Positions 630-41,222 of a stretch of DNA of 58,443 bases are shown here, one piece after another. The number at the start of each line of letters is the position of its first letter. Within the stretch, counting starts at the first letter, position 1. Below the pieces are notes generated by a model. The model was not told where the DNA came from. It did not search any database and saw only the letters and a program-made list of their open reading frames with translations. The stretch is from a virus. Location: IMG/VR virus record IMGVR_UViG_3300045988_162434, positions 64,001 through 122,443 of that record; one strand, 5' to 3'. Both the position numbers and the translations under genes were made by a program.

Positions 630-643
630 GGAGGATTTAGAAG

Positions 644-1669: not shown

Positions 1670-1688
1670 TTTATAATACAAGAGAATA

Positions 1689-1716: not shown

Positions 1717-1747
1717 CTGCTATTAAGAGATAAAGGAGAATTTAATA

Positions 1748-2308: not shown

Positions 2309-2331
2309 TAAAGAGAAAAGGAGGATACTCT

Positions 2332-2892: not shown

Positions 2893-3217
2893 TTGCAATG
2901 TAACAAAAGAAGCAGTTAAAAATACAATAACCAGATTAACAAATCAGATTTATAAAGTTCTTCCATTGAAAGAAGAAAACAAAGATTGGAAAACTTCTTT
3001 AAATAATACAATCTTTGAATTAGTAGGTTTAGATAGTTTATTATCTGATTATTTTAGTTTTTTTAAAATTTTATGCAAATTAGAAAGTCTATTGTTTTTA
3101 GATAATGAGGATGATGAACAAGAATTTTTTTATTTTAGGAAAACTATTTTTGAATGCTTGAGTTTAATGAATGAGGTGAAGCGATGTCTGGATTCGATAG
3201 AATGTCCACAAGAATAA
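2876..3217 (+). CDS. hypothetical small structural-module protein (113 aa)
   Basis: ORF overlapping its upstream neighbour by 17 nt, RBS GGAGGAA 7 nt upstream. Confidence 0.6.
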   Translation: MVIKYNCNVTKEAVKNTITRLTNQIYKVLPLKEENKDWKTSLNNTIFELVGLDSLLSDYFSFFKILCKLESLLFLDNEDDEQEFFYFRKTIFECLSLMNEVKRCLDSIECPQE

Positions 3218-17318: not shown

Positions 17319-17328
17319 CAGAAACTAT

Positions 17329-17359
17329 GCGGAGAGGACTTGACCTCTCCGCTATTTTT
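17329..17359 (+). terminator. rho-independent terminator GCGGAGAGG-ACTTGA-CCTCTCCGC plus TATTTTT
   Basis: Perfect 9-bp GC stem directly after the TMP stop. Its position is the reason the downstream ORF's ATG at 17327 is rejected as the start. Confidence 0.7.
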
Positions 17360-17431
17360 GGTTATAATAGAATAAGAATGAGATTTGATTTTTCATATTC
17401 TAATAAAGAAGAGAAAAAGGAGGAAAGAGTA

Positions 17432-20400: not shown

Positions 20401-23400
20401 TAAAGAATGTAATTACTCTTGGAATGCAAACAGTAACATCTTTTTAGATAAAAATATGACTGTGCATGAAATATCTGTTTCTGAAGATAATGAGTGTCCT
20501 GTTGCAAAGCCAAATCCACTTTTTCAATCTGGAGACTTTTATAATTATATTAAAGTAAAAGTAGATATTGAGAATAAGGTTCTAAAAGATAAATTAAGCA
20601 AGTCTACTTCTGAAAAAGAAGAATTACAAAAAGCTTTGGATAAGAATAATTTAATTTATAATAATTTAGAATTATTTTTAAAAGCATGTAATCTTTATCA
20701 GATAGAATATTCACTTAAACAAAGTAAGGAAGAACTTCAAAAAAGAAGTGAGTGTATAGATGCATTACAAAATATTATCAGTGCAATAAATAATTTAGAT
20801 AGAGATGTTTCAGCTCAATCTAATATGAGCGAATTAACTCTTTCTAATGGAATTAAGATAGGTAGTTCTAAAAGTGCAGATACTTTTATTTATAATGAAT
20901 TAAATATTATAAATAATATTATTATATCTGTTTTAAATACTAAGACAAGTGTTTATGGTATTGGATATAATAATGGAAAAGATATTGAATCTATATCTTC
21001 TTTATTTGAAGATGTTTTCTCTAGAATTTCAACTTTATATGGTAATGGCATTAGAACTATTATTAGAAAAGATGTTAACATTTTACAAAGCTCTATTGAT
21101 GCTTTTAATACTTTTAATCAAAGTATTAAAAATAAAACAGTTACAACTAATTATAGTGATTTTACTGCTAAATTAAAAAGTATAGTTGAGAATGAAAATT
21201 TGGTTGAATTAGCAAAACAAGAAGAAGAATATCAAAAGTTATTAGATACATTAAGTGGATACTATGTGAATATTACAGAGTATGTAAGCGGAAATGATGT
21301 GGAAAAAAATTATGCTGATATTTGGAATAGCTTTGTTAATTTTAAGCAAAAACTTTATTCATATGGCAGAGAAATTGAGTCTGATGAAATATTAGAGCAA
21401 AGAAATCAATTAAATCAACAGTATGCTTTAAGCTTAAATGAAATTGAATCTAATAAAGAAAATACTATTATTTCTAGTGAACCTATTATATCATATCAAA
21501 ATAGAACATTGTCTGGAAAAAAATATTCAGAAGCTAAGAGTATTGTTCAAAAAAGATATGAGGAGTTGACGGCAGAAGAAAATGATAATTGTAGTAAAGA
21601 AATAGCCAAAATTAAAGCCAATAAAGATTTTACTGATGAAGAAAAAGGTAAAGAGATTGCAGTTATAAGACAACACTATGCTATATTAACAAGAGAAAAA
21701 ACTTTGGAAAAAGATGCTGTATTAAAAACTTTGGCTAATGATGTTGAGAAGACAAAAATAAAAAATATAGATATTATAACCAAGAAATATAATACAGATT
21801 TATTAAAAACTTATGAAAATAGCTATTTGGTTCCATTGGCGTATTTACAAGAAAAGTATAGTACAAAAACGTCAGAATTAAATACAGATATTAAAAATAA
21901 AGATAAAGAAATAGCTGACTTAAATAAAGGTATTGAATCTAGTCAAGAATCAGTTATTATTATTAGACCAATAAATATGAAATGTAATTCATATGAAATT
22001 CCTGGGTTAAATAACTGGGATGGTAAAAAATATTATTTATCTAATAATGGTGAATATATGTTTTGTCCTCAAATTGGTGCTGGTGTAAAAACAAATAATA
22101 ACACCTTTACAGGAATGTTTATGGGTGCTAGAACTTCAGTTAATAGAAGTATGGTTTCTGAAACTGAAAATGACCTTAATTTAAGAAATAAGGATATTGG
22201 TTTATTTGGATACTCACAAGGTGTTCAATCTATCTTTTTAGATGCTAAAACAGGTTCCGCGTTTATGGGAATGCCAGGACAAGGCCAGATTGTAATAAGT
22301 CCAGACCAAGCTTTTGCTTCAATATACTCTGGAAATTATTATAAATATGATTCAAACAGAAAAGGCTATTATAGTAAAAAAGATGGTAGCTTTATTAGTG
22401 AAATTGATTTTAATAATTTAAAGACTCAAGAAGAAAGAGATAACTATTCAAGCGGACAAGGTATGCTTATTAACCTAACTGATGGTGCTATAAAGAGTAG
22501 TTATTGGAATGTTAATTCTGAAGGTAAGAGTACATTTACATCTGGAGTTATTGGTGGATGGGAAATTGGTGCAAATACATTATCTAGTATAGTAAAGAAT
22601 AACACGCAGCTCGTGCTTGATAGTGGTAATTCAGTTGGCTTAACAGATGTTAATGGATCTGAAGACCGCAGTCCTAAAATTTATTCTAGTGACAATACTA
22701 AAAAACCACATGATACTTTAGATAGTATGCAACCCGGATTTTATCTTAGCTCAGATGGTTTAAGCATTGGTAATACATTTAAAGTAAGCACTCAACCTGC
22801 GACGGGATTAAGAACTCAAGGAACAGGTATTCTTGAAGTAGGAAATTTAAGTGGCGCACATTGGACGATCGGACAAAATCTTGAAGGTACAAGTTTTATT
22901 GGTTATGGGGCTTCTTATTTAATTAGTAAGTCTTTTGTTAATACAAACAATGATAATTCAGCTAATGATAGTGAAAGTGTATATTTAGGTACTGATGGTT
23001 TATCTTTTGGTAGAAACTTAGAATTAAAATCAAATGGATCATTAAAAGTAGGTCGTTTTACAAAAAATGGTCTTTTAAGTAATTTCTTGGTATTAGAGGT
23101 TGATGAAGGAGATAGCTCAAATGCTTCTTTAAGATTTAATACTAATAGTATACATGATTTTAAGAATAATAGTCTCTATGTAGGAACTCAAGGAATTAGA
23201 CTTGGAAAGCAGAGTTTAAAAAGTAATAATCGTGGAGTATTTGAAGTTGAAAATGATGGTACTCTATGGGCGACAGCGGGGCATATTGCTAATTGGACTC
23301 TTGATGAATATCAATTATTATCAACAAATACGGTCGTTGTAGATGGTACAACTAGACCGGGATTAGTATTAGACAGTAGAAAAGGCTATGTTGCTTTTAT

Positions 23401-24496
23401 TAAAGAAGGTTTTGATAAAACAACAAAAGGTTTCTATATAGGTAATGAAGGCTTATCTTTAGGTGATTCATTCTGGGTTGATAGAACGGGGCAACTTTCT
23501 GCAACAAAAGGAAACATTGCTAATTGGATTATTGATAAAGATTCTTTATATGTAAAGACTTCTGCAACAGATGGTTCATTAGTTAAATTATTTGACATTC
23601 ACCCTACAACGTCTGGCGGATACATTGCTTATAATACAACAGGCTGGAATACAGGTAGATTATTAGATAATGTTGAAGGATGTTTTTACTTAGGTACAAG
23701 CGGAATTTCGCTTGGAGAAGGTCCTGCCGCACCTTTTAGAGTTAATAATAAAGGTTATTTGTGGTCTACCTCTGGAACTATTGGTGGATGGACCATTAGC
23801 AATACAAGCCTTAAAGGTGGTAATGTTACTCTCAATAGTGATGGTTCTATTCAAGGTTCTGGATGGAATTTTAATACTGCTGGCGTTCTTACTTGTAATG
23901 ATGCGATTATTGGTGGTGTTCATTTTAAAACTGGTTCAGGAGAAGCAAATTGGTCAGGTGGACAGATGACATCTGGTCAGATAGGCGGATGGACTATTAC
24001 TACAAGTAGTATTTATGATACTGCAAGTGGTGGCGGAAATATTAAATTTGACACAAGTGGTGATTTTAATATTTTAACAGATGGTGAATCTGGTATTAAA
24101 GGTACCGGTGGAGATATTTCTATGAAAGGTACTACTAGAGTAACTGCTTCTAGTGGTAGTAATAAAATGGAAATAACTAATACAAGTGGTTCTTTAAGAG
24201 TTGGTAGTTTTGGTTTATCTATAAATGCATCAGAAACTTCTTTGAGTGGTTCTTCAAAATTAAGATTATCTGGTGGAACAGAATTGTATCTTTCTTCTCC
24301 TAAGGCTATATTTAATGCTTCTGGAGAAAATATTATGATTGGTTCGAGTACGTCCTTAAAAAACTATATAGAAAGTGTTGTCAATACTGTTCTAAAAAGT
24401 AAAACTATTGATTTTAAAACTAATACAGTCTATACGGGAGAAGCAGAAGGACATAAACATACATATACTAAAGTTGTTAGTGCTACAATATCATAA
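17432..24496 (+). CDS. giant tail-associated protein (about 2354 aa): N-terminal beta domain, central alpha-helical coiled-coil stalk of several hundred residues, C-terminal beta-helix-like repeats with a recurring GGW(T/E)I / IANW(T/I)(L/I) motif. Fiber, spike or evolved distal-tail protein.
   Basis: TTG start at 17432 with RBS AAAGGAGGAAAG 8 nt upstream, in frame with the track ORF. Repeats such as IGGWEIGANTLSS, AHWTIGQNLEG, IANWTLDEYQLLS, IGGWTISNTSLKG, IGGWTITTSSIYD. Confidence 0.75.
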   Translation: MATDYTKFQVDSTVKENFTKAASNTSLNKGADYISNSIYDAVASVSENAASAVQSDVSYEMEVMEIVDQGTATYRVKYLENDKLQAHASTPSYSVGDHVLVLVPRGDFDNPLVILNSVTPSVTVVGEDKTTAETLKRIEVSQNLFNNYNLIKFASYQDEIIDINDIVPYNLSDLLKGYFDSGYNILKLNMNVKTSIAKEQRISGSYGIKVEIPIRRKNADGILKDDIQEFYLDSKVFNGNPYELTNWSNQTNYLVLNFGDEIVFDKKRSIKVTAFVDGFPQDPAKTDKNVWADIILKDIQLTVCEDIETVEGGYKVVLTAENGPFFANQDVSSIEEKKINLKVFLNGLETSYAKMPIYWFIEDPTVNETSKYYHRSAGVNWRCLNSRTEVLGEAQNDSSFVFNTSAGSVTISNQDVKHKSKIRCYVGTNEGQLWVYGELTISNLYSLIKEVNLYADKENNTYVENVGIVTLTCEVNYPNLYSNVVRDEELNYVWEQIDQQGRIISQDDFYNIVALNDKNITDGIYTTKISFPVSSLTSDMNIFKVYVYANKKQASGSIIAYPIETKQISIRTKEGQDFLVVLDNANINYNYDADGDAPDSDNYDGLSLQKLEIKPVEFSIISAATGEEISKAEYDRVSWVWKVPINSLLKPNLVYFESVNQDNTSAITKDDNYYYIRGNGTNRSLQYKLASRYNAKSAQSLSSLTITFGNTVLYEDVPIRFSKDGENGTNGTKYTAFVTYKIGDTEYRYGDIYIDDNGNEHPVKMRFVAVEDNDGTIDWYIYDLVSNTLKKCYALSGNSYSHIKGDLYRLNIKVYKDGEEINTSASSQTGQASVSWNIFDSGEKQGLGWKENKYYCPFAISDSDSSSCYIIPTNNDKSKLSQWNNENNIPYVIVQANISLSNLKATADQSTDDLNNIYNNDLHIYYDYPIEITRIKKPQTDFASDGSFKSFVPSLEGGFYNVLYTSAGNNPQYDDTENFRCESNLIGVDSKECNYSWNANSNIFLDKNMTVHEISVSEDNECPVAKPNPLFQSGDFYNYIKVKVDIENKVLKDKLSKSTSEKEELQKALDKNNLIYNNLELFLKACNLYQIEYSLKQSKEELQKRSECIDALQNIISAINNLDRDVSAQSNMSELTLSNGIKIGSSKSADTFIYNELNIINNIIISVLNTKTSVYGIGYNNGKDIESISSLFEDVFSRISTLYGNGIRTIIRKDVNILQSSIDAFNTFNQSIKNKTVTTNYSDFTAKLKSIVENENLVELAKQEEEYQKLLDTLSGYYVNITEYVSGNDVEKNYADIWNSFVNFKQKLYSYGREIESDEILEQRNQLNQQYALSLNEIESNKENTIISSEPIISYQNRTLSGKKYSEAKSIVQKRYEELTAEENDNCSKEIAKIKANKDFTDEEKGKEIAVIRQHYAILTREKTLEKDAVLKTLANDVEKTKIKNIDIITKKYNTDLLKTYENSYLVPLAYLQEKYSTKTSELNTDIKNKDKEIADLNKGIESSQESVIIIRPINMKCNSYEIPGLNNWDGKKYYLSNNGEYMFCPQIGAGVKTNNNTFTGMFMGARTSVNRSMVSETENDLNLRNKDIGLFGYSQGVQSIFLDAKTGSAFMGMPGQGQIVISPDQAFASIYSGNYYKYDSNRKGYYSKKDGSFISEIDFNNLKTQEERDNYSSGQGMLINLTDGAIKSSYWNVNSEGKSTFTSGVIGGWEIGANTLSSIVKNNTQLVLDSGNSVGLTDVNGSEDRSPKIYSSDNTKKPHDTLDSMQPGFYLSSDGLSIGNTFKVSTQPATGLRTQGTGILEVGNLSGAHWTIGQNLEGTSFIGYGASYLISKSFVNTNNDNSANDSESVYLGTDGLSFGRNLELKSNGSLKVGRFTKNGLLSNFLVLEVDEGDSSNASLRFNTNSIHDFKNNSLYVGTQGIRLGKQSLKSNNRGVFEVENDGTLWATAGHIANWTLDEYQLLSTNTVVVDGTTRPGLVLDSRKGYVAFIKEGFDKTTKGFYIGNEGLSLGDSFWVDRTGQLSATKGNIANWIIDKDSLYVKTSATDGSLVKLFDIHPTTSGGYIAYNTTGWNTGRLLDNVEGCFYLGTSGISLGEGPAAPFRVNNKGYLWSTSGTIGGWTISNTSLKGGNVTLNSDGSIQGSGWNFNTAGVLTCNDAIIGGVHFKTGSGEANWSGGQMTSGQIGGWTITTSSIYDTASGGGNIKFDTSGDFNILTDGESGIKGTGGDISMKGTTRVTASSGSNKMEITNTSGSLRVGSFGLSINASETSLSGSSKLRLSGGTELYLSSPKAIFNASGENIMIGSSTSLKNYIESVVNTVLKSKTIDFKTNTVYTGEAEGHKHTYTKVVSATIS

Positions 24497-24854: not shown

Positions 24855-25343
24855 ATGCTTAACTTATTATCTAATTATTCAGCTACAACTATTGCCATTA
24901 TTATTTTTATGGTGTTAGTTGCTCTCAAAGAGTTAATTGAATTACTTAAATATTTTTATAACATATTAAAGAAATATTTTGGAAAAGAGGAAGAAGAAAA
25001 AAAGAATGATGATAAAATATTAGAACAGTTAAATGAATTAAAAAAAGACTTTGATGAGCATAAAAAAGAACATCAAGAAATAAAAAATGACATACAAGAG
25101 ATAAAAGAGGAATTAGTAGATAACAAAAACAGTATAAAAAGATTAGTGACATCAGACCGGAATGACATAAAAAGCTGGCTTGTAGAAAAACATCATTTTT
25201 TCACAAATCAAGGCTGGATAGATGACTTTTCAATGGATACTGTTAATAGAAGATTTAGTGATTATGTTGATGAAGGCGGCAACTCGTATGCAGAGAGTCT
25301 AGTGAGTGCGATTAGAGATCTCCCTAACCAACCGCCGCAATAG
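24855..25343 (+). CDS. membrane-anchored coiled-coil protein (162 aa): N-terminal TM helix, highly charged K/E coiled coil, C-terminal domain. Candidate BhlA/UviB-like holin-like or superinfection-exclusion protein.
   Basis: RBS AAGGAGGAATAG. TM segment TTIAIIIFMVLVALKELIELL followed by KEEEEKKNDDKILEQLNELKK... Located in the moron unit inside the tail module. Confidence 0.7.
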   Translation: MLNLLSNYSATTIAIIIFMVLVALKELIELLKYFYNILKKYFGKEEEEKKNDDKILEQLNELKKDFDEHKKEHQEIKNDIQEIKEELVDNKNSIKRLVTSDRNDIKSWLVEKHHFFTNQGWIDDFSMDTVNRRFSDYVDEGGNSYAESLVSAIRDLPNQPPQ

Positions 25344-27261: not shown

Positions 27262-29502
27262 ATGAATTATATGTTGGATAAAGATTTTTTAAAGCAATTA
27301 GACGAAGATAATTTAAAACAATGCTATGTTAAAATAGAAGTTTTAGATTCAGAAGAAAAACCTATTAGTGATATTGTTGGTAGAGTGTCTACTGGCAATA
27401 GCAATATAAATGGTTCTTCTTCATTAAGAAGAACTGCTAGTTTAACTTTTGTAGCTGATGAAGTAGATAATGATTTAACAGATGTAGATAATTTATTATC
27501 TATAAGTAAAAGAATTGCTTTATATGTCGGATTTGAAAATAATATAGATTTAAAGTATGATGATATTATTTGGTTTAAACAAGGAATATTTTTAATTCAA
27601 CAGCCAAGTATTTCTCATAATTTAGGTAGTGTGACTATTTCATTAAGCTTACAAGATAAAATGTGCTTACTTAATGGTACAATGGGCGGTGGATTACCTA
27701 CTAGCATCACGTTCCATGAGTATGATCAGCTGGATAGTGAGGGGAACGTAACCACACTGCCGCAGTTAATATTTGATATTATTCAGACTCTTGTTGTAAA
27801 CTATGGCGGAGAGGACATATCTAATGTTTATATTACAGATATTCCGAGAGAGCTAAAACAAATTGTGCATTGGCAAGGCTCTAAAACGCTATACTTTAAT
27901 ACAGAAGATAGCCATTTTACAACAGATTCAAATGAAGTTACTTCAAGCAAGACACCTGCGGTTTGGAAGACCTATGAAGCTGGAGATGAGATAGGTTATA
28001 CTTATACTTCATTTACGTATCCTGGTGAATTAGTTTCAAATATTGGAGATAATGTTTGTACTATTCTTGATACTATTGTTAGTACATTAGGTAATTATGA
28101 ATATTTTTATGATGTAGATGGGCATTTTATTTTTCAAGAAAAGAAAAATTATTTGAATACATCATATGATGAATTAACTGTTGATGAAAGTGGATTACTT
28201 TTTTATAATCCATATCAGTTAGCTAATTATGGACGAAAAAATGAAGATGGAAGTTTTACTTCAAGCGCAGATAACAATATTTATTTAATAAATAATAAAA
28301 ATTATCAAGTAGATTTTAGTAGTAATAGTAAAGTTGAATATGAATTTAACACAAATAATGGCTTAATTACTTCTATTAGCAACACTCCAAGTTATGAAAA
28401 TATAAAGAATGATTATCATATTTGGGGAAAGACTGATAATGATATTGCAATTCATTATCATGTTGCAATTAAAGAAAAACCAAGTGAATTAAATTATTAT
28501 GCAGTTAGATTTTTACGAGATGACCAAGATTCTACTAAATATTCTGGTAAAATACAAGTTCTTGATGGAGCAAAAAATTTAGAAGATGTTAAGATAGATA
28601 ATGAAATTTTAAGTTTTATTGCAAAAGAGGATACTCCTCAAGAAAATAGAAGAGAAGCTATTAAAAATGAAGAAGATGAATTTTATACAGTAGATACAAA
28701 ATCTTTAGATAAAGTTGAAAATAAATCAATTTGGTCTATAACTCAAAGTGATATTTATATTTATCAACCACAAGATTGGCGTGTTGAATTATGTTTTAGA
28801 GGAATGTATAAAAATATGCGTCAAATCAGACCAGATATTTATGAACAAGAGCTTATGGATTTGTTGAATTTAATATATGATTTTACAGCTTATAATGAAG
28901 AAACGCAATCATATGGTAAATATAAATTTGATATATTAAATAAACCAAATCATTTACCATATTTTATTGATTTCATTGAGCCTTCAACCGCAATGGGAAC
29001 TTATTCAGTTGACTCTATTGGACCTAGAATATTATCTCATCAAGAAGACAAAATCAATAAAATATATAATCTTGATATACCAGATATTGTTATTATCAAT
29101 AAAGATGATGATGAAATTGGCTATGATGAATATGGTAAAGAACTTAAAAATGAAGAAGGCGTATCTATAACATTTGCTGATTATTTAAGAGATAAGTGTG
29201 GAAAAGAAGGTCAAGCTATATCTCAAGTAGATAAAAATATTTATAGCAATATTGAAATGAATTCTTCTGGCTATACTGCTCTTGAGACTTTTAGAGATTT
29301 ATTATATCAAAATACAAGTTTTGCTGAAGCAATATCTATTTCTTCTATCCCTATTTATTATTTAGATGTTAATAGAAGAATAACTGTTAATGATAAGGTA
29401 AGTGGCATTAGTGGTGATTATATTGTTAATAGCATTTCTTTACCTTTAAATGGACAACAAACTATGAGTATTAGCGCAAGTAGAGCATATGAACGTATTT
29501 AG
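27262..29502 (+). CDS. tail-associated/baseplate hub protein (Tal-like, 'phage minor structural protein N-terminal region' type), 746 aa
   Basis: N-terminus (KIEVLDSEEKPISDIVGRVSTGNSNINGSSSLRRTASLTFVADE) resembles the conserved N-terminal domain of siphovirus Tal / prophage-tail proteins. RBS GGAGGT. Confidence 0.6.
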   Translation: MNYMLDKDFLKQLDEDNLKQCYVKIEVLDSEEKPISDIVGRVSTGNSNINGSSSLRRTASLTFVADEVDNDLTDVDNLLSISKRIALYVGFENNIDLKYDDIIWFKQGIFLIQQPSISHNLGSVTISLSLQDKMCLLNGTMGGGLPTSITFHEYDQLDSEGNVTTLPQLIFDIIQTLVVNYGGEDISNVYITDIPRELKQIVHWQGSKTLYFNTEDSHFTTDSNEVTSSKTPAVWKTYEAGDEIGYTYTSFTYPGELVSNIGDNVCTILDTIVSTLGNYEYFYDVDGHFIFQEKKNYLNTSYDELTVDESGLLFYNPYQLANYGRKNEDGSFTSSADNNIYLINNKNYQVDFSSNSKVEYEFNTNNGLITSISNTPSYENIKNDYHIWGKTDNDIAIHYHVAIKEKPSELNYYAVRFLRDDQDSTKYSGKIQVLDGAKNLEDVKIDNEILSFIAKEDTPQENRREAIKNEEDEFYTVDTKSLDKVENKSIWSITQSDIYIYQPQDWRVELCFRGMYKNMRQIRPDIYEQELMDLLNLIYDFTAYNEETQSYGKYKFDILNKPNHLPYFIDFIEPSTAMGTYSVDSIGPRILSHQEDKINKIYNLDIPDIVIINKDDDEIGYDEYGKELKNEEGVSITFADYLRDKCGKEGQAISQVDKNIYSNIEMNSSGYTALETFRDLLYQNTSFAEAISISSIPIYYLDVNRRITVNDKVSGISGDYIVNSISLPLNGQQTMSISASRAYERI

Positions 29503-29570: not shown

Positions 29571-31217
29571 ATGGAGGAAGTTTCACAGGTAAAACTAGAA
29601 GGCTCTCTTTATAACGTTAGAGACGAGCAAGCTAGAAAAACAATGATAAGTCGAACAAACCCTGTTATTGAAGGCTCGCTTAGTGTCAATAAAAAAGAAG
29701 AAACTGCGGTTGGCAATAATAGTGTTACTTTGAATACTAATAATAGCGCGACCGGGGAAGGCGCTACAGCGACTGGATTTGAGACTAACGCATCTGGAGA
29801 TTATTCTTTTACTCAGAATTTTCAAACTATAGCTTCAGGCAGTGGATCTCATGCAGAGGGATATAAGTGTGAAGCTAGCGGAGATTATTCTCATGCAGAG
29901 GGATGGATTACAAAGTCTAAAGAAGTAGCTTCACATAGTGAAGGATATTTGAATAATGCAACTGGGCTTTATGCACATTCAGAAGGATCATCAACAATAG
30001 CAAGTGGACAAAGTTCGCATACAGAAGGTAGTGGCGCGGTTGCTGCTGGTCACTACTCACATGCTGAAGGTATAGATACTAAAGTAGGTGAAACCGCAGC
30101 AAATGGTACCGTAAGTGGAGAAACAACAGGTAGTCAAGAGATAATTAAAAAGGATGAATTAAATCTTGCAATTCTTGGCGGACACGCGGAAGGTGTACAA
30201 ACTAAAGTTCTTAGTTCAGGCTGTCATGCAGAGGGTGTTGAAACCCAAGCTGGTGGAGTTGTTGAAGTGGGCGATACTGCAAAGCAGCAGTTAGGTTGCC
30301 ATGCTGAAGGTTATAGAACTATAGCTGGATATGATTATCAGAGTGTTTGTGGTTTTTATAATGATAATAAAAATACAACAATTTTTGAAGTTGGCAATGG
30401 TGTTATGGAACAAAGAAATAATGCCTTTGAAGTTTATAAAAATGGCGATGCTAAAATTCATGGTAATCTCTATATAGATACTGGCAAGGGTGAATCTGGT
30501 CAAATGAATTTAAGAGACTTATTAAAAGATATTAAACAGAATAACTTTTATATCTCTTATCATAATAATGAAACATTTGATGCACTACATGAACCAATTA
30601 TGGATACACTAACTGTAGATAGTGATTTATCTAATCTAACCGCAGGTAGATTTGATTTAGATAATTTAGTAGGAATAACTAAAGCAGATATTTATAAATT
30701 ATTTGATGGAAAAGAAAATACTTCAATTTCCTTACCTGATTCTAATTTTAGTTTAATATTTAACTTTAATGAAGAAGTTCAAATAGATATGGTAAAATTT
30801 GTAGTATCTAGTACAGGTAATGGTATTCCGGTATTACAAACTTGGAATCCAGACCTTGAGATCTGGGTGGATGCCGCGGATGCTTTTATAAATACTTCTA
30901 AAGTTACGACTATTGTTAAATATGTAAACCACATTCCTACATCTAAGTTTAGATTAACTTCACATTCTGATTCTGCTTTTAATTTATACGATTTACAAAT
31001 TTATGGTACTTCAATTAAGGGTAGAGTTTATAAGAAGGTAGAAGATAGATTAAGTTCTTATGATTTAGATGTTCAATTTTATGATACAGAAGTCTCTGAA
31101 TCTGATTATAAAGCTAATTTATCTTACTATAATACAGACAATGATGATAGTGCATATAATGCATTGGTTAGTTTATATAATACAACAATAAAGACTAAGG
31201 AAGGAGAAAGTAACTAA
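29571..31217 (+). CDS. tail fiber protein with SHAEG-type beta-helix repeats and a C-terminal discoidin/F5-F8-type-C-like carbohydrate-binding domain
   Basis: Repeats GDYSHAEGW, SSHTEGS, HYSHAEGI, GGHAEGV, GCHAEGV, GCHAEGY. C-terminus has KLFDGKENTSISL ... FNLYDLQIYGT (discoidin-like ending). Confidence 0.65.
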   Translation: MEEVSQVKLEGSLYNVRDEQARKTMISRTNPVIEGSLSVNKKEETAVGNNSVTLNTNNSATGEGATATGFETNASGDYSFTQNFQTIASGSGSHAEGYKCEASGDYSHAEGWITKSKEVASHSEGYLNNATGLYAHSEGSSTIASGQSSHTEGSGAVAAGHYSHAEGIDTKVGETAANGTVSGETTGSQEIIKKDELNLAILGGHAEGVQTKVLSSGCHAEGVETQAGGVVEVGDTAKQQLGCHAEGYRTIAGYDYQSVCGFYNDNKNTTIFEVGNGVMEQRNNAFEVYKNGDAKIHGNLYIDTGKGESGQMNLRDLLKDIKQNNFYISYHNNETFDALHEPIMDTLTVDSDLSNLTAGRFDLDNLVGITKADIYKLFDGKENTSISLPDSNFSLIFNFNEEVQIDMVKFVVSSTGNGIPVLQTWNPDLEIWVDAADAFINTSKVTTIVKYVNHIPTSKFRLTSHSDSAFNLYDLQIYGTSIKGRVYKKVEDRLSSYDLDVQFYDTEVSESDYKANLSYYNTDNDDSAYNALVSLYNTTIKTKEGESN

Positions 31218-31879
31218 TGTCTATTTTTAATAAAACTATAAGCTGTACAATAAACAATTTGCCAAAAGAATTTGAGACTCTTGTTACACAATGGGCAACA
31301 AATAAAAATGGTAATATGGCTTGCACAGTTAGTGAAACTACTTGTTCTTTGACTATTGATGAAGACGTGTGTACTTTTTCTTTTCCAACTACTGGAAACT
31401 ATAGTGGCTCATATCAATGGAGCATTACAATTTGTGATGCTCCAGACTATGAGTGTTGCACTATTTTAAATAGAGAAAGTTTTAGCGGCATTGATGGTAA
31501 TAATACAAGTAGCGCAGACCAAAGATATAATTTAATTATTTGTAAATATAATGGTACTTTAAAATGCTTAAATTCTGTATCTGTAGATGGATTTAGTTTA
31601 AGTGATTTATTTAATATACCAAAAGGTAGATATAATATTTCTTCTATAAATGATGTTTATATTACAAGAGCTTTAATAAATCCAAATTTAGCATCTGCAA
31701 ATGCAATCAATATTTCAGATAATTTATATTTATCTACAAATTTAATTAACGTTGGTGTGAAAACAATAGTTAAGAGCAAAGAAGATACTAGTAAACAGTT
31801 TATAAATGTTGGTGGGGTTTTCTATTTACCTTATTCTGCAAGTATTTTAACTATTAGTTCTAAAGAACTAAGTGCATAG
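31217..31879 (+). CDS. Cys-rich tail protein (220 aa) carrying the conserved fiber module at its C-terminus (paralog family member 1)
   Basis: Start overlaps the upstream stop (TAATG). C-terminus DNLYLSTNLINVGVKTIVKSKEDTSKQFINVGGVFYLPY is shared with the next three genes. Nine Cys in the N-terminal 110 aa. Confidence 0.7.
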   Translation: MSIFNKTISCTINNLPKEFETLVTQWATNKNGNMACTVSETTCSLTIDEDVCTFSFPTTGNYSGSYQWSITICDAPDYECCTILNRESFSGIDGNNTSSADQRYNLIICKYNGTLKCLNSVSVDGFSLSDLFNIPKGRYNISSINDVYITRALINPNLASANAINISDNLYLSTNLINVGVKTIVKSKEDTSKQFINVGGVFYLPYSASILTISSKELSA

Positions 31880-31908
31880 GGGCTTTTAAATAAGCCCCAA
31901 TTTATTTT
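31879..31908 (+). terminator. rho-independent terminator GGGGCTT-TTAAAT-AAGCCCC plus T-rich tail
   Basis: 7-bp GC stem overlapping the stop codon, followed by AATTTATTTT. Confidence 0.6.
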
Positions 31909-31928
31909 GAGAAAAAGGAGGAAAAGAG

Positions 31929-33356
31929 TTGGCTTTATTTTATTTTAGCATAGGCGCGACAGATACTAGTGCGACTTTGAAAGAGAGATTAGATGGAATA
32001 AGAGAAGACGGAGCAAATATTTCTTATACTATTGTTTCTGCAAATGAAGTTAATTTAAAGATAAATGAACTTACTTTTACAGTTAGATATAATTTATCAA
32101 AAGCTTCAACTGCACAATATTTTTGGTATTTATGTGATGCATATAAGAGAGAGAATTTAGTTATCTTATGTGATTCACCTAATGTAAATGAGAATGGTAA
32201 AGAAAATACTCTTGGTTTAGCAATTTATAATAGAGTATATTTTAGATATAAAAATGAAATGATTGAAATTCCTTTTAAAGAAGATACTTTTGCTACAAGA
32301 TTTAATTTAATAAAAGGAAGATTTAATACTTTTGATGATGAAAACGAAAATAGTGATTCTGTTATGTTAACTCGATGTACTTTTAATAATGGCAATGAGG
32401 TTGATAATGGTGGGGTTGTTATTTCTGATTATTTATATATTTCTTCCAATTTACAAGATGTTAATTTTAAAACTATTGTTAAAGATGAAAATGGTAATAG
32501 TTTTATAAATGTAGGTGGTGTCTTTTATATGGATAATGTAGATTATGTTATAAAAGATAGCACTTGTCCTTTATTGGTTATAGTACCAGATGGAAGAATT
32601 AAATATGAGTGGAATGCAAATACTGAAATTGTAAATGATATTTGGTTAGATACAACGAAAACAATCAGTGCTAAATTTAATAATAGCAATCATAAAATTC
32701 AAAATAATAGTATTATAATTACTGGTCCAGCGTTAATGAATTTATCTCTTTCTAATAATATAACAAATGGTTTTACATTATATCTTATTTTTAAAAACTA
32801 TAATGGTCATTCCCATCCAGAATTATCATTACAGTATAATAATCAAGATATACTTTATAGTGGGTATGATTTTTCATATATTTTTAATAATCAGGATAAT
32901 AAATTAGGAGTATATGTAAATAGAACAGATCGCTATAGTGATTTAAGTTATCCACTTTTTACATATTCTTCATATAAAGAAATAGAACATCTTGTTAATA
33001 ATAGTAGTTTTTATACTTTTAATATTGATATTTCAAATAAACCTTTATTAGTTTATGCTTTAAAAATTTCAAAAAATAAAAACTTATCTTATAACTCTCC
33101 TCCAAAATTATCTATTTTTGTCAAAGATAAAAAATTTTATGATAATATTTTAACACAATATGATTCAGGAGGAATAGCTTCCAGTACTTGCGATATAGAC
33201 AATATAGAAGCAGTATTTTCTTCCCAAATAAGCGATGGAATTTATGGAGAAATTAAATATATAGGTCTTCAACCAAGTGGAGAAACAAGTGATGATGAAA
33301 TACTTGAAAACATGCAATATTTAACAAAAAAATTTAAGTTAGATCAGGAGGAGTAA
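31929..33356 (+). CDS. receptor-binding/tail fiber-like protein, paralog 2 (475 aa)
   Basis: TTG start with RBS AAAGGAGGAAAAG. Shares the N-terminal roughly 200 aa and middle module (LY.S.NL...FKTIVKDE.G..FINVGG.FY) with paralogs 3 and 4. Divergent C-terminal roughly 270 aa. Confidence 0.75.
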   Translation: MALFYFSIGATDTSATLKERLDGIREDGANISYTIVSANEVNLKINELTFTVRYNLSKASTAQYFWYLCDAYKRENLVILCDSPNVNENGKENTLGLAIYNRVYFRYKNEMIEIPFKEDTFATRFNLIKGRFNTFDDENENSDSVMLTRCTFNNGNEVDNGGVVISDYLYISSNLQDVNFKTIVKDENGNSFINVGGVFYMDNVDYVIKDSTCPLLVIVPDGRIKYEWNANTEIVNDIWLDTTKTISAKFNNSNHKIQNNSIIITGPALMNLSLSNNITNGFTLYLIFKNYNGHSHPELSLQYNNQDILYSGYDFSYIFNNQDNKLGVYVNRTDRYSDLSYPLFTYSSYKEIEHLVNNSSFYTFNIDISNKPLLVYALKISKNKNLSYNSPPKLSIFVKDKKFYDNILTQYDSGGIASSTCDIDNIEAVFSSQISDGIYGEIKYIGLQPSGETSDDEILENMQYLTKKFKLDQEE

Positions 33357-33357
33357 A

Positions 33358-34662
33358 ATGGGATTATATAAATTTAGTATCGCGGCTGCCGCGTCTCTTA
33401 GTGATATTGAAGCTAAAATCACTAGCGCTAGGGAGCAAGGCGCGAATATTTATCTACACACCATTGTAGATATAGGTAACTTAAATTTGTCAATAAATGA
33501 TAAAAATGTTACAATAAACTATGATTTAATTGGAACAAAACAGAATAGTTTATTCCATTGGTATATTTGTGATACAGTTGGATATGAGACTATTATTATT
33601 TTATATAATTCAGGAACTGAATCAGATAGTACGTTTGGTTTAGCTAATTATAATCGAATCTATTTTAATGTGAAGAATCAACTGGTGTCAAACCCAAAGA
33701 TCTCAGCGACGCTAGCCGCGCAATTTAATGTTCTTAGAGGACGATTTGATTCATATGAATCAGATGGTGGCAATGATGATGTAATTATGTTAACCAAATG
33801 TGTCTATAATGATGGATCTAATATTGAAACAGGAGAAGCTATTGTTACAGATAATCTTTATGTTTCAACTAATTTAAGGTCAACTTCATTTAAGACTATT
33901 GTTAAAGATGAAGATGGCAAGCAATTTATAAATGTTGGTGGAATTTTTTATTTGCCATATAGTGAAAAAATTATGTATCCTAGTTTTAGTGAAAAACAAT
34001 GGATATTACCGCTAGGGAGTATTGATTATGAGTGGCATCCTGCTACAACAGCTGTTAAGTCTAAATGGTATGATACAAACAATAATAAAAATTTTACTTT
34101 TAATAGCTGTTCTTATGAAACTAATATAGAGAATTTTTATAAAAGTATATTAAAATATACTACTCATACTACTCATTCTGGTGCAATATACTCGGAGAAT
34201 ATAGATTTTTTTAATTCACCATCTAGCTCTTTAATTTTTTATATTATAATAGCATCAAGAGAAAAATGCAATGAGAATATCCCTTATCTTCAATTATGTT
34301 TTGCTGAGAGTAACGGCGAACAAGGGGTGTATTTTTATGGAGATGATACAATTCAAGTTAAAGTAATTAAATCTGGTAGCGGCAGCACGGAATATTTTGC
34401 AACGAGACAAGACCCTTTAAAATATAATGTTTATGCAGTTAAAGTTAGTGAGTTTGTTGCCAACTCTTCATCCTATGCAGCAAATTTTTCTGTATATATA
34501 AATGGAAAGTTTATAAGACTTTTTAATAATGCATTGTGTGGTAATTGGTTAAGATTAGGTATCTCTAATTTTAAATATGTTGGTATAGTAGAACATGATC
34601 AAACATCTGAGGAGATTATTAAAAATTCTCAATTACTTATGAAAAAGTTTGATATATATTAA
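33358..34662 (+). CDS. receptor-binding/tail fiber-like protein, paralog 3 (434 aa)
   Basis: RBS CAGGAGGAG. Same conserved N-terminal and middle module, different C-terminal domain, conserved acidic C-terminal tail. Confidence 0.75.
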   Translation: MGLYKFSIAAAASLSDIEAKITSAREQGANIYLHTIVDIGNLNLSINDKNVTINYDLIGTKQNSLFHWYICDTVGYETIIILYNSGTESDSTFGLANYNRIYFNVKNQLVSNPKISATLAAQFNVLRGRFDSYESDGGNDDVIMLTKCVYNDGSNIETGEAIVTDNLYVSTNLRSTSFKTIVKDEDGKQFINVGGIFYLPYSEKIMYPSFSEKQWILPLGSIDYEWHPATTAVKSKWYDTNNNKNFTFNSCSYETNIENFYKSILKYTTHTTHSGAIYSENIDFFNSPSSSLIFYIIIASREKCNENIPYLQLCFAESNGEQGVYFYGDDTIQVKVIKSGSGSTEYFATRQDPLKYNVYAVKVSEFVANSSSYAANFSVYINGKFIRLFNNALCGNWLRLGISNFKYVGIVEHDQTSEEIIKNSQLLMKKFDIY

Positions 34663-34674
34663 GGAGGTTAAAAC

Positions 34675-36252
34675 ATGGCTTTATTTCAATTTAGTACATC
34701 AATTAGTACAACAGTTTCAGAATTAGCTGATAAATTAACCTCTTGGCAGGATAGCGGAGCTAGTATATCAGAAATTGCAATTTCTAATATCAATGATATA
34801 AGTTTTTTAATAAATGATAAATATTGTAATGTTAAATATAATATATCTTTTTCTCAAAATGCAAATTATTTTTGGTTTTTATGTGATAGTGTTGGATATG
34901 AAACTTTAATTGTTTTATGTGATTCCCCTATTGTTAATGAAAATGGGTATAAAGGAAGTCTTGGAAATGCGTTGTATAATGCGATTTATTTTTTACATAA
35001 TGGTAGATTGGTAAGAAATCCTCAAATTGATGAACCTATATGTAGTCAATTTAATATTCCTAATGGTTCTGTTGTTGAAAGTTCTGATGATAGAATTATA
35101 TTTACTAGATGTACTTTTAATAATGGTGTTAATATAGAAGTAGGTTCAAATGAGATAACTGACAAATTATATATATCAACAAATTTAATTTCTGCTGGTT
35201 TTTTAACTGAAATTACAGGATCGGGGCAAAAATTTATAAATATTGGTGGGATATTCTATTTACCTTATAATGATGTTGTTTTAAGTCTAAGCAAGTATAA
35301 AAAAAGAAGTGTTTTAAAAAATGCTGAAATAGAATTATGGGCAGGTTGTTATGAAGATAATGAAAAAATATATGATAAAAAAAATAATGTTTTTTATAAA
35401 AACACTTATAATAATATAAAAATAGTTCCAGACGGGAATATGGAAATGGGATATATTGATTTAGATGCTGGTGATAGGTTGCTGTTGACAAGCAAAGAGC
35501 CTTTTTATAATAAAACAATTTATTTAGTTGCTTATGATACTGGAATAGAATCTTTTGATCAACAAAGTCAGGAGTCAGAAGTCGGTTATATGAAAAAAAT
35601 AATCACAAGTGGAATTACCTTTAGAGAGGTTTCGACAGATAAGATATCTTTTTATCCTGAAATGTTTAGTTTAAATAAAATAAGTGCATGGGGATCGTCG
35701 CCGTCTTATAAGAAGGAATTAGGATATGCTTTAATGAATTATAAAAACCAAAATTGGAATAAAACTGACCCAAAACCAGTACCAATATATTTTAATTATT
35801 CATTATTATCTAAAAAAGATAATTATTTTCTCTTACACTATCCAAAAGCTCATGAAGCAGTTTGGGCATTCAAAGATATAAAAGTTAAAAAAAATATATA
35901 CGTATTAAAGTCTCCTGTTGTTAAAAATGGTGAATATTCAGCATTTATAAATAATTTAAAAATAGAAAAAAGCGCAAGTTATTTTATAGAATCTTATAAG
36001 CCTGATTCTTATAATAAAGCAGACTATTTCTTAATAATAGGAGGTAGACAAGGTGCGGACAGTAGTGTCATTAGCCCAGTAGCTTTTCCAACTGAAGAAA
36101 ACACTTTTTATCATAATCAAATTAGAAATACATCAGAATTAAAAATAGATTATTTTGGAATAATAGAAGAATCACAGTCTGATGAAGAAATACAAAAAAA
36201 TATTCAAAAGTTAGCAAAAATCTTTAAAGTAGATTTAGAAGAGCCCTCATAA
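34675..36252 (+). CDS. receptor-binding/tail fiber-like protein, paralog 4 (525 aa)
   Basis: RBS AAGGAGG. Same module. The longest and most divergent C-terminal domain. Confidence 0.75.
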   Translation: MALFQFSTSISTTVSELADKLTSWQDSGASISEIAISNINDISFLINDKYCNVKYNISFSQNANYFWFLCDSVGYETLIVLCDSPIVNENGYKGSLGNALYNAIYFLHNGRLVRNPQIDEPICSQFNIPNGSVVESSDDRIIFTRCTFNNGVNIEVGSNEITDKLYISTNLISAGFLTEITGSGQKFINIGGIFYLPYNDVVLSLSKYKKRSVLKNAEIELWAGCYEDNEKIYDKKNNVFYKNTYNNIKIVPDGNMEMGYIDLDAGDRLLLTSKEPFYNKTIYLVAYDTGIESFDQQSQESEVGYMKKIITSGITFREVSTDKISFYPEMFSLNKISAWGSSPSYKKELGYALMNYKNQNWNKTDPKPVPIYFNYSLLSKKDNYFLLHYPKAHEAVWAFKDIKVKKNIYVLKSPVVKNGEYSAFINNLKIEKSASYFIESYKPDSYNKADYFLIIGGRQGADSSVISPVAFPTEENTFYHNQIRNTSELKIDYFGIIEESQSDEEIQKNIQKLAKIFKVDLEEPS

Positions 36253-36266
36253 GAGGGCTCTTTTTT
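36241..36266 (+). terminator. rho-independent terminator GAGCCCTC-ATAA-GAGGGCTC plus T6
   Basis: Perfect 8-bp stem including the stop codon, followed by TTTTTT. Confidence 0.8.
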
Positions 36267-37133: not shown

Positions 37134-37925
37134 ATGTTCAATGGAAACACTAGTGGCTATTCATTAGCCGATATCGCAGCCGCAACAGGCGGAAACGATA
37201 GAAACAATGGATGGGGAGGAGATTGTTGGTGGATCGTTCTTTTCATCTTAATTCTTGCCGGCGGAAATAACTGGGGTGATGGATTATTTGGTGGTAAAGA
37301 CGCAACAGCTTCTGGTATTACTGATGGCTATATCCTTACAACAGATTTCGCTAACATCGAAAGAAAAATTGATAGCGTAAACAATGGTATTTGTGATGGA
37401 TTCTATGCTATGAACACAGGTATGCTTAATGGGTTTAATTCATTAGGTAATGCTATTCAGGGTGCTCAGGCTGATGTAACTGCTGCAGTAAATGCAGATA
37501 CAATAGCAAATATGCAGAATACAAATGCTATTACTAGCCAACTTACTGGTATTGGTACACAGATTGCTCAATGCTGCTGCGATCAGAGATACGAGAGCGC
37601 AACTCAGTTTGCTAACTTAAACTATAATATTGCAGATCAGAGCTGTCAAACAAGACAAGCTATTGCTGATTCTTCAAGAAATATTATAGCTAATCAAGAC
37701 GCTAATACAAGAAGTATCTTAGACTTCTTAACACAAGACAAGATTGCTACTCTTACAGCTGAGAATCAGTCACTTAAATTTGCTGCTTCACAGGCTGCAC
37801 AGAACACATATCTTGTAAATGCACTTAGCCCAGCTCCAGTTCCATCATATCAAGTTCCAAATCCTTATACAGGAATGTATGGATATAGAGCATGCTGCAA
37901 TACTGGATGCGGATGTACTGTATAG
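37134..37925 (+). CDS. membrane-anchored protein (263 aa) with a Gly/Trp-rich 'tiny-TM' YjcZ-like N-terminal segment and a Cys-cluster C-terminus
   Basis: RBS AAAGGAGGA. GWGGDCWWIVLFILILAGGNNWGDGLFGG. C-terminal QCCCDQRY ... RACCNTGCGCTV. Confidence 0.7.
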   Translation: MFNGNTSGYSLADIAAATGGNDRNNGWGGDCWWIVLFILILAGGNNWGDGLFGGKDATASGITDGYILTTDFANIERKIDSVNNGICDGFYAMNTGMLNGFNSLGNAIQGAQADVTAAVNADTIANMQNTNAITSQLTGIGTQIAQCCCDQRYESATQFANLNYNIADQSCQTRQAIADSSRNIIANQDANTRSILDFLTQDKIATLTAENQSLKFAASQAAQNTYLVNALSPAPVPSYQVPNPYTGMYGYRACCNTGCGCTV

Positions 37926-37938
37926 GAGGTAAGTAACT

Positions 37939-38361
37939 ATGGAAATTACAGCTAATGCTGCTCAATCTGTTGCAGCAAGTCAAAATGTGGTATTCACGGA
38001 TACTGCTGTTCCTGGTAACTGCTCCATTATTCACAGAGAAGGTTCTGGTTTAACTAAATTGCGCGGTCTCACAACTACGCAGTGTAGAGCTAGATTCAAA
38101 GCTACATTCGGTGGTAACATAGCAGTTCCAACAGGTGGCACTGCAGGAGCAATTTCTGTTGCTTTAACTGTAGATGGCGAGCCTGTGGGTACAACAACTA
38201 TGACAGTAACTCCAGCCGCAGTAAGTGAGTATTTTAATGTAGGAGCAAGTATTTATCTTGATGTGCCTGCGGGGTGTTGCTCTACTATTGGAGTAACAAA
38301 CATTTCTTCTCAGGCTATTTCTGTAATAAATGCTAATCTTATAGTAGAAAGAGTTGCTTAA
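37939..38361 (+). CDS. BclA C-terminal-domain-like (C1q/TNF-like jelly-roll) protein, 140 aa, without a collagen region
   Basis: RBS AGGAGGTAAG. LTVDGEPVGTTTM and the C-terminal ...NANLIVERVA resemble the Bacillus BclA C-terminal domain (...IQVNGVPVPGT... ...SIIIEKVA). Confidence 0.6.
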   Translation: MEITANAAQSVAASQNVVFTDTAVPGNCSIIHREGSGLTKLRGLTTTQCRARFKATFGGNIAVPTGGTAGAISVALTVDGEPVGTTTMTVTPAAVSEYFNVGASIYLDVPAGCCSTIGVTNISSQAISVINANLIVERVA

Positions 38362-38924: not shown

Positions 38925-39248
38925 TTGTTTACAATAAATGGAGAAACATGGTATATAGTATTTGTTCCTTCTAATTCTTTTGTTCTTTATAGAAGTGATG
39001 GTTCTCTTAGTATCGCCATGTGTGATGACGATACTAAAACCATATATATTAGTAATCAAATAAAAGGTAATTTTCTAAGAAAAGTCCTTTGCCATGAGAT
39101 AACTCATGCGGCAATGTTCTCTTATAATGTTAACCTAACTGTAGACCAAGAAGAGCTATTAGCTGACCTTGTAGCTACTTATGGCTACGAAATTATTTAC
39201 ATTACAAATGAGATATTTAGAAAATTAAAATGGGAGTCTTATTATTAA
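38925..39248 (+). CDS. small HExxH zinc-metallopeptidase-like protein (ImmA/IrrE- or SprT-like motif CHEITHAAMF), 107 aa, TTG start
   Basis: HEITH motif preceded by hydrophobic residues, as in ImmA/IrrE-type peptidases. The TTG start overlaps the upstream stop. No adjacent HTH partner. Confidence 0.45.
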   Translation: MFTINGETWYIVFVPSNSFVLYRSDGSLSIAMCDDDTKTIYISNQIKGNFLRKVLCHEITHAAMFSYNVNLTVDQEELLADLVATYGYEIIYITNEIFRKLKWESYY

Positions 39249-39266
39249 GACTCCCATATTTTTATT
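39230..39266. terminator. bidirectional rho-independent terminator at the convergence of the late (+) and early (-) modules (12-bp stem ATGGGAGTCTTA / TAAGACTCCCAT, T-runs on both sides)
   Basis: Perfect inverted repeat overlapping the stop of the + strand gene, 4 nt from the ruvC stop. Flanked by AAAATTAAA and ATTTTTATT. Confidence 0.7.
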
Positions 39267-40611: not shown

Positions 40612-40884
40612 TTATAAAATAGTAATTTTCAAATCATTTTTCTCAAATTCGGTTGTTATAGCTAACTCATCCTTATATTTTTGAGCGATCGCCTGTCCGC
40701 CCATTAGCAATACTTCATCAATTTCTGGATAGTTTGAAACATAAGATTTAATTGAAGGTACTACATCATTAATCGGTACGTTCATTTCAGATAAAACCTT
40801 TTTACCGTCTAATACTGCAACAGTATGTTTTTTTGTATATGTACAAACATCAGCTAATATTTTCAATATTCTAAAACACCCCAA
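40612..40884 (-). CDS. hypothetical protein (about 85-90 aa; TTG start uncertain, alternative TTG at 40866)
   Basis: ORF with only TTG candidates as starts. Overlaps the upstream gene. Confidence 0.5.
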   Translation of the reverse strand: MGCFRILKILADVCTYTKKHTVAVLDGKKVLSEMNVPINDVVPSIKSYVSNYPEIDEVLLMGGQAIAQKYKDELAITTEFEKNDLKITIL

Positions 40885-41222
40885 TCATAATCAAATAAAT
40901 AATAAAGGAAATCTTCATCGCCAATTCTTAGCCAGATTTCATACTTTCCATCATCTTGAAGAGTAATATCAGTAACCTGTCCTCTATTATGGAACAACTC
41001 TATGATATCATTTTTTACTGTCTCTATTGTTGGTTCTCCACTCAAATTAAAAACAGTATAATCTCTTCTTTCATTACTAAGAAGCATAAAATAATTATTG
41101 TCTTGTTCAAGCATCCACTTTGCTATTTTATGACATAATTTATTTATAGCAATTCCATCATACGGCTTAATCTGCGCCATATTTGTTTTATTTAATTCAT
41201 AAAGCGTAAAACTATTTTTCAT
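40863..41222 (-). CDS. hypothetical protein (119 aa)
   Basis: ORF in the operon. Confidence 0.6.
   Translation of the reverse strand: MKNSFTLYELNKTNMAQIKPYDGIAINKLCHKIAKWMLEQDNNYFMLLSNERRDYTVFNLSGEPTIETVKNDIIELFHNRGQVTDITLQDDGKYEIWLRIGDEDFLYYLFDYDWGVLEY

Follow-up and report, generated by a model that had tools for sequence, protein, structure and literature searches.

The DNA described here is a window of 58,443 nucleotides (nt) from the IMG/VR virus record IMGVR_UViG_3300045988_162434 (positions 64,001–122,443), and with related contigs reaching up to 146–148 kb, it represents a portion of a large phage genome. Toward the end of its tail module lie four consecutive open reading frames (ORFs), named c1 to c4, which a preliminary description of this DNA had singled out as an array of receptor-binding protein (RBP) paralogs. 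All four were found at the lengths and places reported there, and their coordinates are collected in Table 1 together with those of their parts and of the surrounding features. Each of the three long proteins (c2, c3, and c4) joins an N-terminal domain (N-domain) to a C-terminal domain (C-domain, or head), and our analysis concerns how these two parts are related between paralogs and between phages, and what the array may do. Homologous proteins and contigs are cited below by our own handles (P and L numbers, respectively).

Table 1. The c1–c4 array, its parts, and other features of the window (aa, amino acids; nt, window positions)
Feature	Position (nt)	Strand	Size	Description
c1	31217-31879	+	220 aa	N-domain alone, no lectin domain
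c2	31929-33356	+	475 aa	TTG start; from ORF list, BLASTP, and profile comparison
c2, parts	33249-33353 (tail)			N-domain aa 1-~214; conserved linker aa ~215-232; variable C-domain to aa ~440; tail aa ~441-475
c3	33358-34662	+	434 aa	N-domain aa 1-212 (nt 33358-33993)
c3, predicted ConA-like/LamG lectin domain	33994-34659			aa ~213-434
c3, predicted terminal strand and helix	34564-34659			strand aa 403-411, helix aa 417-430
c4	34675-36252	+	525 aa	N-domain aa 1-209 (nt 34675-35301)
c4, C-domain			315 aa	variable; shared terminal strand-helix aa ~489-525 (nt 36139-36249)
Terminator-like hairpin	31879-31898	+	7-bp GC-rich stem	GGGGCTT-loop-AAGCCCC, then T-rich tract
Strong intrinsic-terminator-like hairpin	36237-36264	+	12 bp, 6 GC	then T run; overlaps c4 stop
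Fibre-like protein	29571-31217	+	548 aa	sub-threshold YadA-head-like repeats; immediately 5′ of c1
Tail/baseplate-type protein	27262-29502	+	746 aa	PHROG 1887 'tail protein'
ORF in tail module	24855-25343	+	162 aa	marginal hemerythrin HHE match, 26.1 bits (cut-off 25.3)
ORF	17327-24496	+	2389 aa	directly 3′ of tape measure gene; without Pfam or PHROG match
Tape measure protein	8709-17318	+	2869 aa	PF10145 and several tape measure PHROGs
Protein with Cys clusters	37134-37925		263 aa	PHROG 16490
Small protein	37939-38361		140 aa	PHROG 20016 (E 1e-51)
ORF with HExxH-type motif	38925-39248	+	107 aa	last gene of plus-strand block
Hairpin	39230-39257		12-bp stem, perfect	scores as terminator on both strands

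To establish the relationship between the four proteins, we compared them with BLASTP, and this gave 39% identity between c2 and c4 (E 3e-44) and 37% between c3 and c4 (E 5e-45) over an N-domain of ~210 residues, 40% between c2 and c3 when the N-domains alone were aligned (E 3e-56), and 35% between residues 45–217 of c1 and 44–212 of c3 (E 1e-18). With pairwise E-values that range from 1e-18 to 3e-56, the similarity is far beyond chance, and the four ORFs can be regarded as true paralogs. Moreover, when a hidden Markov model of the N-domain was run against the six-frame translation of the window, the matches came from these four ORFs only, with c1 at E 1.7e-79. The N-terminus of about 200 residues that the preliminary description had seen in the three long genes is hence well founded, and the ~50-residue module that it placed in all four does recur in each, though as the end of the shared N-domain and not as a separate unit. 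For the same reason, c1 does not carry this module 'at its C-terminus instead', but is a whole stand-alone N-domain. It is also Cys-rich, as had been noted (9 Cys in 220 aa), and the most divergent c1 ortholog in our alignment (P0018) is without three of these nine. As for its structure, the model of the N-domain is only moderately confident, with residues 1–85 forming a β-α-β meander at a predicted local distance difference test score (pLDDT) of ~80–90 and the remainder at ~45–70, and no Pfam, PHROG, or Protein Data Bank (PDB) match and no confident fold match was obtained for it. A weak structural match at 7% identity, which is a lead only and rests on a model with a pLDDT of ~50 over the aligned half, was to two 'virion structural protein' chains of the JBD30 baseplate (8rk3_S and 8rk3_c); these chains are possibly the gp47/gp48 fibre-forming heterodimer, although their identity could not be confirmed.

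Comparison with close relatives located where the array varies. Between the window and L001 or L004, protein identity amounts to 93–100% for the flanking genes and 95–98% for c1 (86–98% across relatives), against 56–82% for c2–c4. Here, the divergence is confined to the heads, as the N-domains are 85–100% identical, the heads 15–55%, and the last ~40 residues 70–90%. Across ~130 homologues from metagenomes, N-domains and neighbouring genes likewise stay at 85–100%. It begins ~20–45 residues into the linker, 3′ of the conserved module, which is where the preliminary description had expected the breakpoints of head swapping to lie. On the nucleotide level, identity falls from ~93% to 40–60% in the space of one to two 90-nt windows and rises again at the tail, and because these drops are so sharp, the mosaic pattern would reflect a swapping of long-diverged alleles rather than recent point mutation. 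The metagenomic homologues provide 128 heads, which form 19 clusters at 60% identity, and at the c4 position there are at least seven C-domain clusters of 222–339 aa, with head types of ~222, 268, and 315–340 residues.

Turnover is seen as well in the make-up of the array, which consists of one short and three long genes in all six complete arrays (6/6). That of L009 runs c1, c2, c2′, and c3, with the c4 type missing, and its gene in the c3 position (9001–10425 of L009) begins c3-like over the first eight residues (MGLYKFSI) but is otherwise of a divergent c2 type, having an N-domain 67% identical to c2. By sequence comparison, this is a clear replacement of one paralog by another within the array, and along with the 19 head clusters, it agrees with the earlier notion of an evolving cassette. 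In the distant L006, we found a single short N-domain protein together with a 681-aa protein that also has this domain, the two being flanked by homologues of the 746-aa protein and of the downstream 132-aa protein. As L006 has one of each kind at the syntenic place, the pairing of short and long proteins is older than the triplication. Two further proteins, both metagenomic, look like joins between paralogs, as P0001 (221 aa, on a 1185-bp contig) starts c3-like and ends c1-like, and P0020 (170 aa, on 618 bp) starts c2-like and ends c1-like. The join apparently falls inside the shared N-domain, and these chimeras reflect either genuine deletions in which paralogs recombined or the misassembly of short contigs.

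For the heads, the AlphaFold2 model made from an 83-sequence family alignment places c3 residues ~215–434 at a pLDDT of ~90 in an all-β arrangement that ends with a strand and a helix. Structure comparison describes this as a two-sheet curved β-sandwich jelly roll of the ConA-like/LamG type, and so the c3 head is predicted to have a lectin fold. Searching the predicted viral structures in BFVD with Foldseek, we retrieved phage ConA-like lectin/glucanase proteins, two 'virion structural proteins' of S-PM2, and a putative tail fibre, these matches covering the lectin half only, given TM-scores of ~0.3–0.38 of the query. Among the structural neighbours were the sialidases of T. rangeli and V. cholerae, the minor pilin PilC from S. 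sanguinis, the receptor-binding domains of botulinum neurotoxins, and the tailspike gp15 of cyanophage Pan3, all with a sequence identity of 7–14% to the lectin head. Pfam, even at E 10, returned no match for the four window proteins or for seven isolated C-domains, and the single Laminin_G_3 (PF13385) match in the family, that of the distant homologue P0169 (18.9 bits, E 0.0018), is below the gathering threshold of 27.6 bits. When head clusters were compared using hhalign, those within one gene position proved homologous over their full length (96–100%), and most pairs from different positions share the tail only. A weak full-length match was found between a c2-type and a c3-type cluster (88%, 226 columns), and each of the two is also matched by the distant lectin family, at 98% over 130–150 columns for c3 types and 96% over 90 columns for c2, while for the c4 head the match to this family is confined to the last ~37 residues (93%). 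On these profile comparisons, the C-domains of c2, c3, and c4, which had been described as unrelated, are not demonstrably so.

The preliminary description had further drawn attention to a conserved C-terminal tail in the long paralogs, and this is real, with pairwise BLASTP E-values of 1e-4 to 1e-3 between the paralogs and hhalign probabilities of 80–91% over the last ~30 residues between ortholog groups. In the population alignments, the tail stands out as much the best-conserved part of the C-domain, with an entropy of 0.5–0.9 bits versus 1.4–1.9 bits for the rest (for c2, 0.48 bits over the last 35 aa, 1.40 in the C part, and 0.31 in the N part), and it is the sole segment common to the heads of all three paralogs. 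Such features would suit a functional docking or chaperone-recognition tag of ~20–35 aa appended to unrelated heads, as was first suggested. However, in the c3 model the tail constitutes the final β-strand and the terminal helix of the lectin domain (pLDDT 87–96), and its motif ('[FY]K[YF].[GA][IV]...[ST][DE][DE].I..N...L...[FY]') also forms the end of the lectin domain in every distant homologue. P0159 and P0164 have two tandem domains and two copies of the motif, the internal copy closing the first domain, and the Laminin_G_3 match of P0169 continues through it to profile position 150/151. The PF13385 family itself presumably ends in a similar motif ('...aLs.eEI..'). Being part of the lectin fold, and found internally too in homologues with tandem domains, the tail is best understood as a signature of the domain rather than a tag added to it, and part of its conservation is expected if it falls outside the recombining cassette. 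We thus consider a dedicated tag rather unlikely, though such strong conservation inside a hypervariable domain leaves room for an added role.

As for the distribution of the family, word-indexed searches of 5.8 billion proteins retrieved ~150 homologues, all metagenomic and all from this phage lineage, and 1.84 billion cluster representatives, searched exhaustively with HMMER profiles, yielded only 27 hits, mostly from the same lineage. Beyond it, P0160 is a stand-alone N-domain protein of a more distant phage, and P0159, P0164, P0166, P0168, and P0169 match the C-terminal domain only. Of these, P0164 adjoins proteins that share its repeat modules and that are fibre-like by eye only, having no PHROG match. 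A search of IMG/VR returned two contigs only. No match was obtained for the four proteins or the isolated heads in Pfam and PHROGs, nor for the array or c4 among 50,697 GenBank phages (blastn and tblastn), and profiles run against PDB sequences produced no significant hit (best E 0.34). The 185,579 reference species genomes of bacteria and archaea in GTDB contain no relative of the N-domain, and consequently offer no sign of a prophage and no clue to the host.

With regard to its setting, the array belongs to the plus-strand half of the window, which is the structural module and includes virion structural PHROGs. The order on this strand is the tape measure gene, the 2389-aa ORF, ORFs of 162, 630, and 746 aa, the 548-aa ORF, and then c1–c4, and this gene order of the tail module is kept in six relatives. 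The four genes are hence encoded in the tail module, 3′ of tape measure and baseplate-type genes, and the long ones combine a conserved N-terminal part with a C-terminal part that is variable between close phages. Considering position, fold, and variability, we judge, with a probability of about 0.6, that c1–c4 form a hypervariable tail-tip multi-adhesin (receptor-binding) cassette which diversifies by recombination. Here, c2, c3, and c4 would be three tail-tip adhesins, whether receptor-binding or accessory carbohydrate-binding proteins, in each of which the conserved ~210-aa N-domain would anchor the protein at the tail tip or on partner subunits, the short conserved linker would join it to the lectin head, and the ConA-like/LamG jelly roll would contact glycans on the host surface. 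The lectin domains are the fastest-diverging part of this genome region, and their divergent alleles may be exchanged through homologous recombination between conserved flanks, these being the N-domain and linker on one side and the terminal strand-helix with the N-domain of the next gene on the other; whole paralogs would occasionally be replaced as well. In such an arrangement, c1 is most likely a non-binding structural partner of the long paralogs, i.e., an adaptor, cap, or assembly subunit.

Several points weigh against this multi-adhesin proposal. For all four proteins, presence in the virion and binding to cells are what we infer, and the phage is known only from metagenomes. RBPs are often trimeric and carry a fibrous stem, of which c1–c4 give no sign. 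Moreover, the variation in the c3 head is even over strands and loops (1.78 versus 1.71 bits), with no focus on a binding site, and the fold model is that of the c3 head only, to which c2 is linked by profile similarity and c4 by its last ~37 residues. A variant of the proposal, which we hold tentatively and with low confidence, is that the four N-domains form one heteromeric three-headed adhesin in which c1 nucleates or caps the three long subunits. This would explain both the constant set of one short and three long genes, even where the long genes have changed (c2, c2′, and c3 in L009), and an N-domain without counterpart among known baseplate-attachment domains, and the terminal helix of the heads could then be a second contact point besides being a fold element.

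Other explanations concern what the heads do and how they came to differ. If the C-domains were glycan-degrading depolymerases (GH16, PL7, or a related jelly roll) that cut capsule or cell-wall polysaccharide, catalytic residues would be conserved in the concave sheet, namely ExDxxE for GH16 and an Arg/Gln/His/Tyr set for PL7. However, the ExDxxE motif of GH16 is absent from all heads examined, and across 31–50 orthologues per paralog there is no conserved acidic pair, and essentially no conserved polar residue, inside the head. Lacking conserved catalytic residues, the heads are better read as binding modules than as enzymes, and we have rejected the depolymerase explanation as quite improbable. 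Somewhat more credible, yet still unlikely, is that these lectin-like proteins do not bind host receptors at the tail tip but serve in another role, either decorating the virion and binding mucus or environmental glycans, or acting at the cell surface as non-structural late proteins (e.g., in superinfection exclusion). The N-domain, after all, is without similarity to known tail-attachment domains, ConA-like domains are found in viral proteins of many sorts, and the incorporation of c1–c4 into the virion is a prediction. On the other hand, the genes close the tail module, share its strand, and are translationally coupled to the 548-aa fibre-like gene, and on reading the N-termini by eye, with no predictor used, no signal peptide or transmembrane segment is evident. 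Furthermore, only the lectin part is hypervariable, in surroundings that are 93–100% conserved, which is what would be expected of bacterial-surface recognition and not of binding to a conserved animal glycan.

Dedicated diversification mechanisms, namely a diversity-generating retroelement (DGR) or an invertase/shufflon, deserve mention since they are known to target the C-termini of phage tail fibres, with Mtd of Bordetella phage BPP-1, Gin of Mu, and Cin of P1 as examples. Yet between 29 and 40 kb of the window, there is no pair of template and variable repeats and no meaningful inverted repeat around the heads. Each paralog, moreover, is a complete gene that has an N-domain of its own, and all of them share one strand. 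The alleles also differ at 45–85% of residues, with insertions and deletions, over 220–340 aa, which is far beyond adenine mutagenesis of the DGR type. Nor was a reverse transcriptase or invertase found among the scanned ORFs of at least 100 aa in the window, a scan that omitted six ORFs of this size, five of them without any Pfam scan, along with ORFs below 100 aa (those outside the Pfam scan include 40863–41222, 56812–57339, and four at 123–3217 that were compared with PHROGs only). Both the DGR and the invertase were accordingly rejected, and we lend such a mechanism hardly any credence beside the recombining adhesin cassette.

Regarding expression, the terminator-like hairpin that the preliminary description had placed between c1 and the long genes is present, with the final base of the c1 stop codon as its first, and in all relatives examined (L001–L004 and L008–L011) its stem is kept and its loop is variable. 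The TTG start of c2 is likewise there, 3′ of an AAGGAGG sequence, and is kept in seven close relatives, with ATG in the more distant L008. Together, the conserved hairpin and, in this clade, the TTG start probably lower the expression of c2–c4 with respect to c1 and the upstream tail genes. The strong hairpin that overlaps the c4 stop marks the end of the c2–c4 unit. A promoter scan was uninformative, with 61 sites against 63 expected.

Among the neighbouring genes, the stop of the 548-aa ORF overlaps the start of c1, and its fibre-like product is 93–96% conserved among relatives. This protein begins with VKLEGSLYNVRDEQARK, and a similar LPSGTPYYIKDIEARQ begins a neighbour (L007 64–1685) of the distant lectin homologue P0164. 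By eye only, its C-terminal third resembles a discoidin or carbohydrate-binding-module type of domain ('...FNLYDLQIYG'). The 746-aa protein, with a DUF5048 match (E 3.4e-07, 30.8 bits) just under the Pfam cut-off of 32.3 bits, is a syntenic anchor 5′ of the N-domain genes, also in the distant lineage L006. Further upstream, the 2869-aa and 2389-aa ORFs are both intact in the standard code, and the tape measure length would imply an exceptionally long tail, from which a siphovirus-like tail is suggested; its match to the tape measure family is limited to the first ~500 aa. The orthologues of the 162-aa ORF in relatives give the same weak hemerythrin HHE match.

On the 3′ side of the array follow six small conserved ORFs, and then the strand switches to a replication block encoding RuvC, dUTPase, NrdD, guanylate kinase, the DNA polymerase III (Pol III) alpha subunit, an SF1 (UvrD/RecD-like) helicase, RecJ, and DnaB. 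The 263-aa and 140-aa genes are placed between the adhesin array and this switch; the former has Cys clusters ('QCCCDQRY' and, at the C-terminus, 'CCNTGCGCTV'), and the latter is 100% identical in L001. In the 107-aa ORF, the HExxH-type motif reads 'CHEITHAAM', accompanied by weak metallopeptidase/SprT-like matches (PHROG 1233; Pfam DUF6782, E 8e-4). The perfect hairpin at its end is the exact meeting point of the plus-strand late block and the minus-strand replication block, where the sign of the GC skew flips. No tRNAs were found in the window.

The nearest annotated phages, all very distant, were identified through the 746-aa protein, which has 31% identity to that of phAss-1 and 34% to that of an unannotated gut 'Bacteriophage sp.'. 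For the phAss-1 group, a tape measure protein of >3100 aa has been described, a siphovirus morphology inferred, and receptor-binding tail-fibre genes predicted (PMC10607447). In phAss-1, these predicted genes share the strand of the gene homologous to that of the 746-aa protein and follow it ~7.4–10.6 kb downstream. The phAss-1 record (L005, OQ749652.1) belongs to a 'Caudoviricetes code 15 clade' with TAG recoded, and its genes are fragmented in the record. Because the structural genes of the window read cleanly with translation table 11, its lineage would be a standard-code distant cousin of this recoded group.

Conserved-anchor/variable-head RBPs and phages with multiple RBPs are already well established, so the design proposed here should not surprise the specialist. 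In the lactococcal siphophages, for example, with ORF18 of p2, BppL of TP901-1, and BppL of Tuc2009 alongside the accessory BppA, the protein is held on the baseplate by its conserved N-terminal part, its C-terminus is an exchangeable saccharide-binding head that varies among phages much alike in other respects, and an accessory carbohydrate-binding subunit beside the main RBP is possible there as it is here. In contrast, our N-domain has no sequence or detectable fold similarity to the shoulder and stem domains of these RBPs, the small lactococcal head fold is replaced by a ConA-like/LamG jelly roll of ~220 aa that ends in a helix, and instead of a single RBP gene, there are three long paralogs and one head-less paralog in tandem. 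A second likeness is with multi-RBP phages such as CBA120 (TSP1-4), G7C, PhiK64-1, and K1-5/SP6, in which a row of genes closing the tail module specifies several recognition proteins, presumably on display at once and thereby broadening or layering host recognition. The tailspikes of these phages are mostly β-helix depolymerases with dissimilar or hierarchical N-terminal adaptor domains, whereas the present array has one paralogous N-domain, lectin-type heads without sign of an active site, and an extra head-less copy. Compared with other ConA/LamG (PF13385) members, the heads fall below the Pfam models and their 14-residue C-terminal helix is strongly conserved.

What is new, then, is the lineage-restricted N-domain family, the tandem layout of one short and three long genes, and the documented lectin head alleles in an uncultured gut phage. 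Two unannotated families are thereby defined, that of the N-domain and a LamG-like lectin subfamily with a terminal strand-helix motif. The conserved flanks of the heads are obvious junctions for engineered head swaps, and the head types could serve as markers that tie phage variants to host strains in metagenomes. If our reading is true, the array would be a natural example of adhesin diversification by cassette exchange, with fixed anchors, ~19 or more head types, and three heads per genome, and the locus would be a host-range determinant of an abundant uncultured lineage of ~140–148-kb gut phages.

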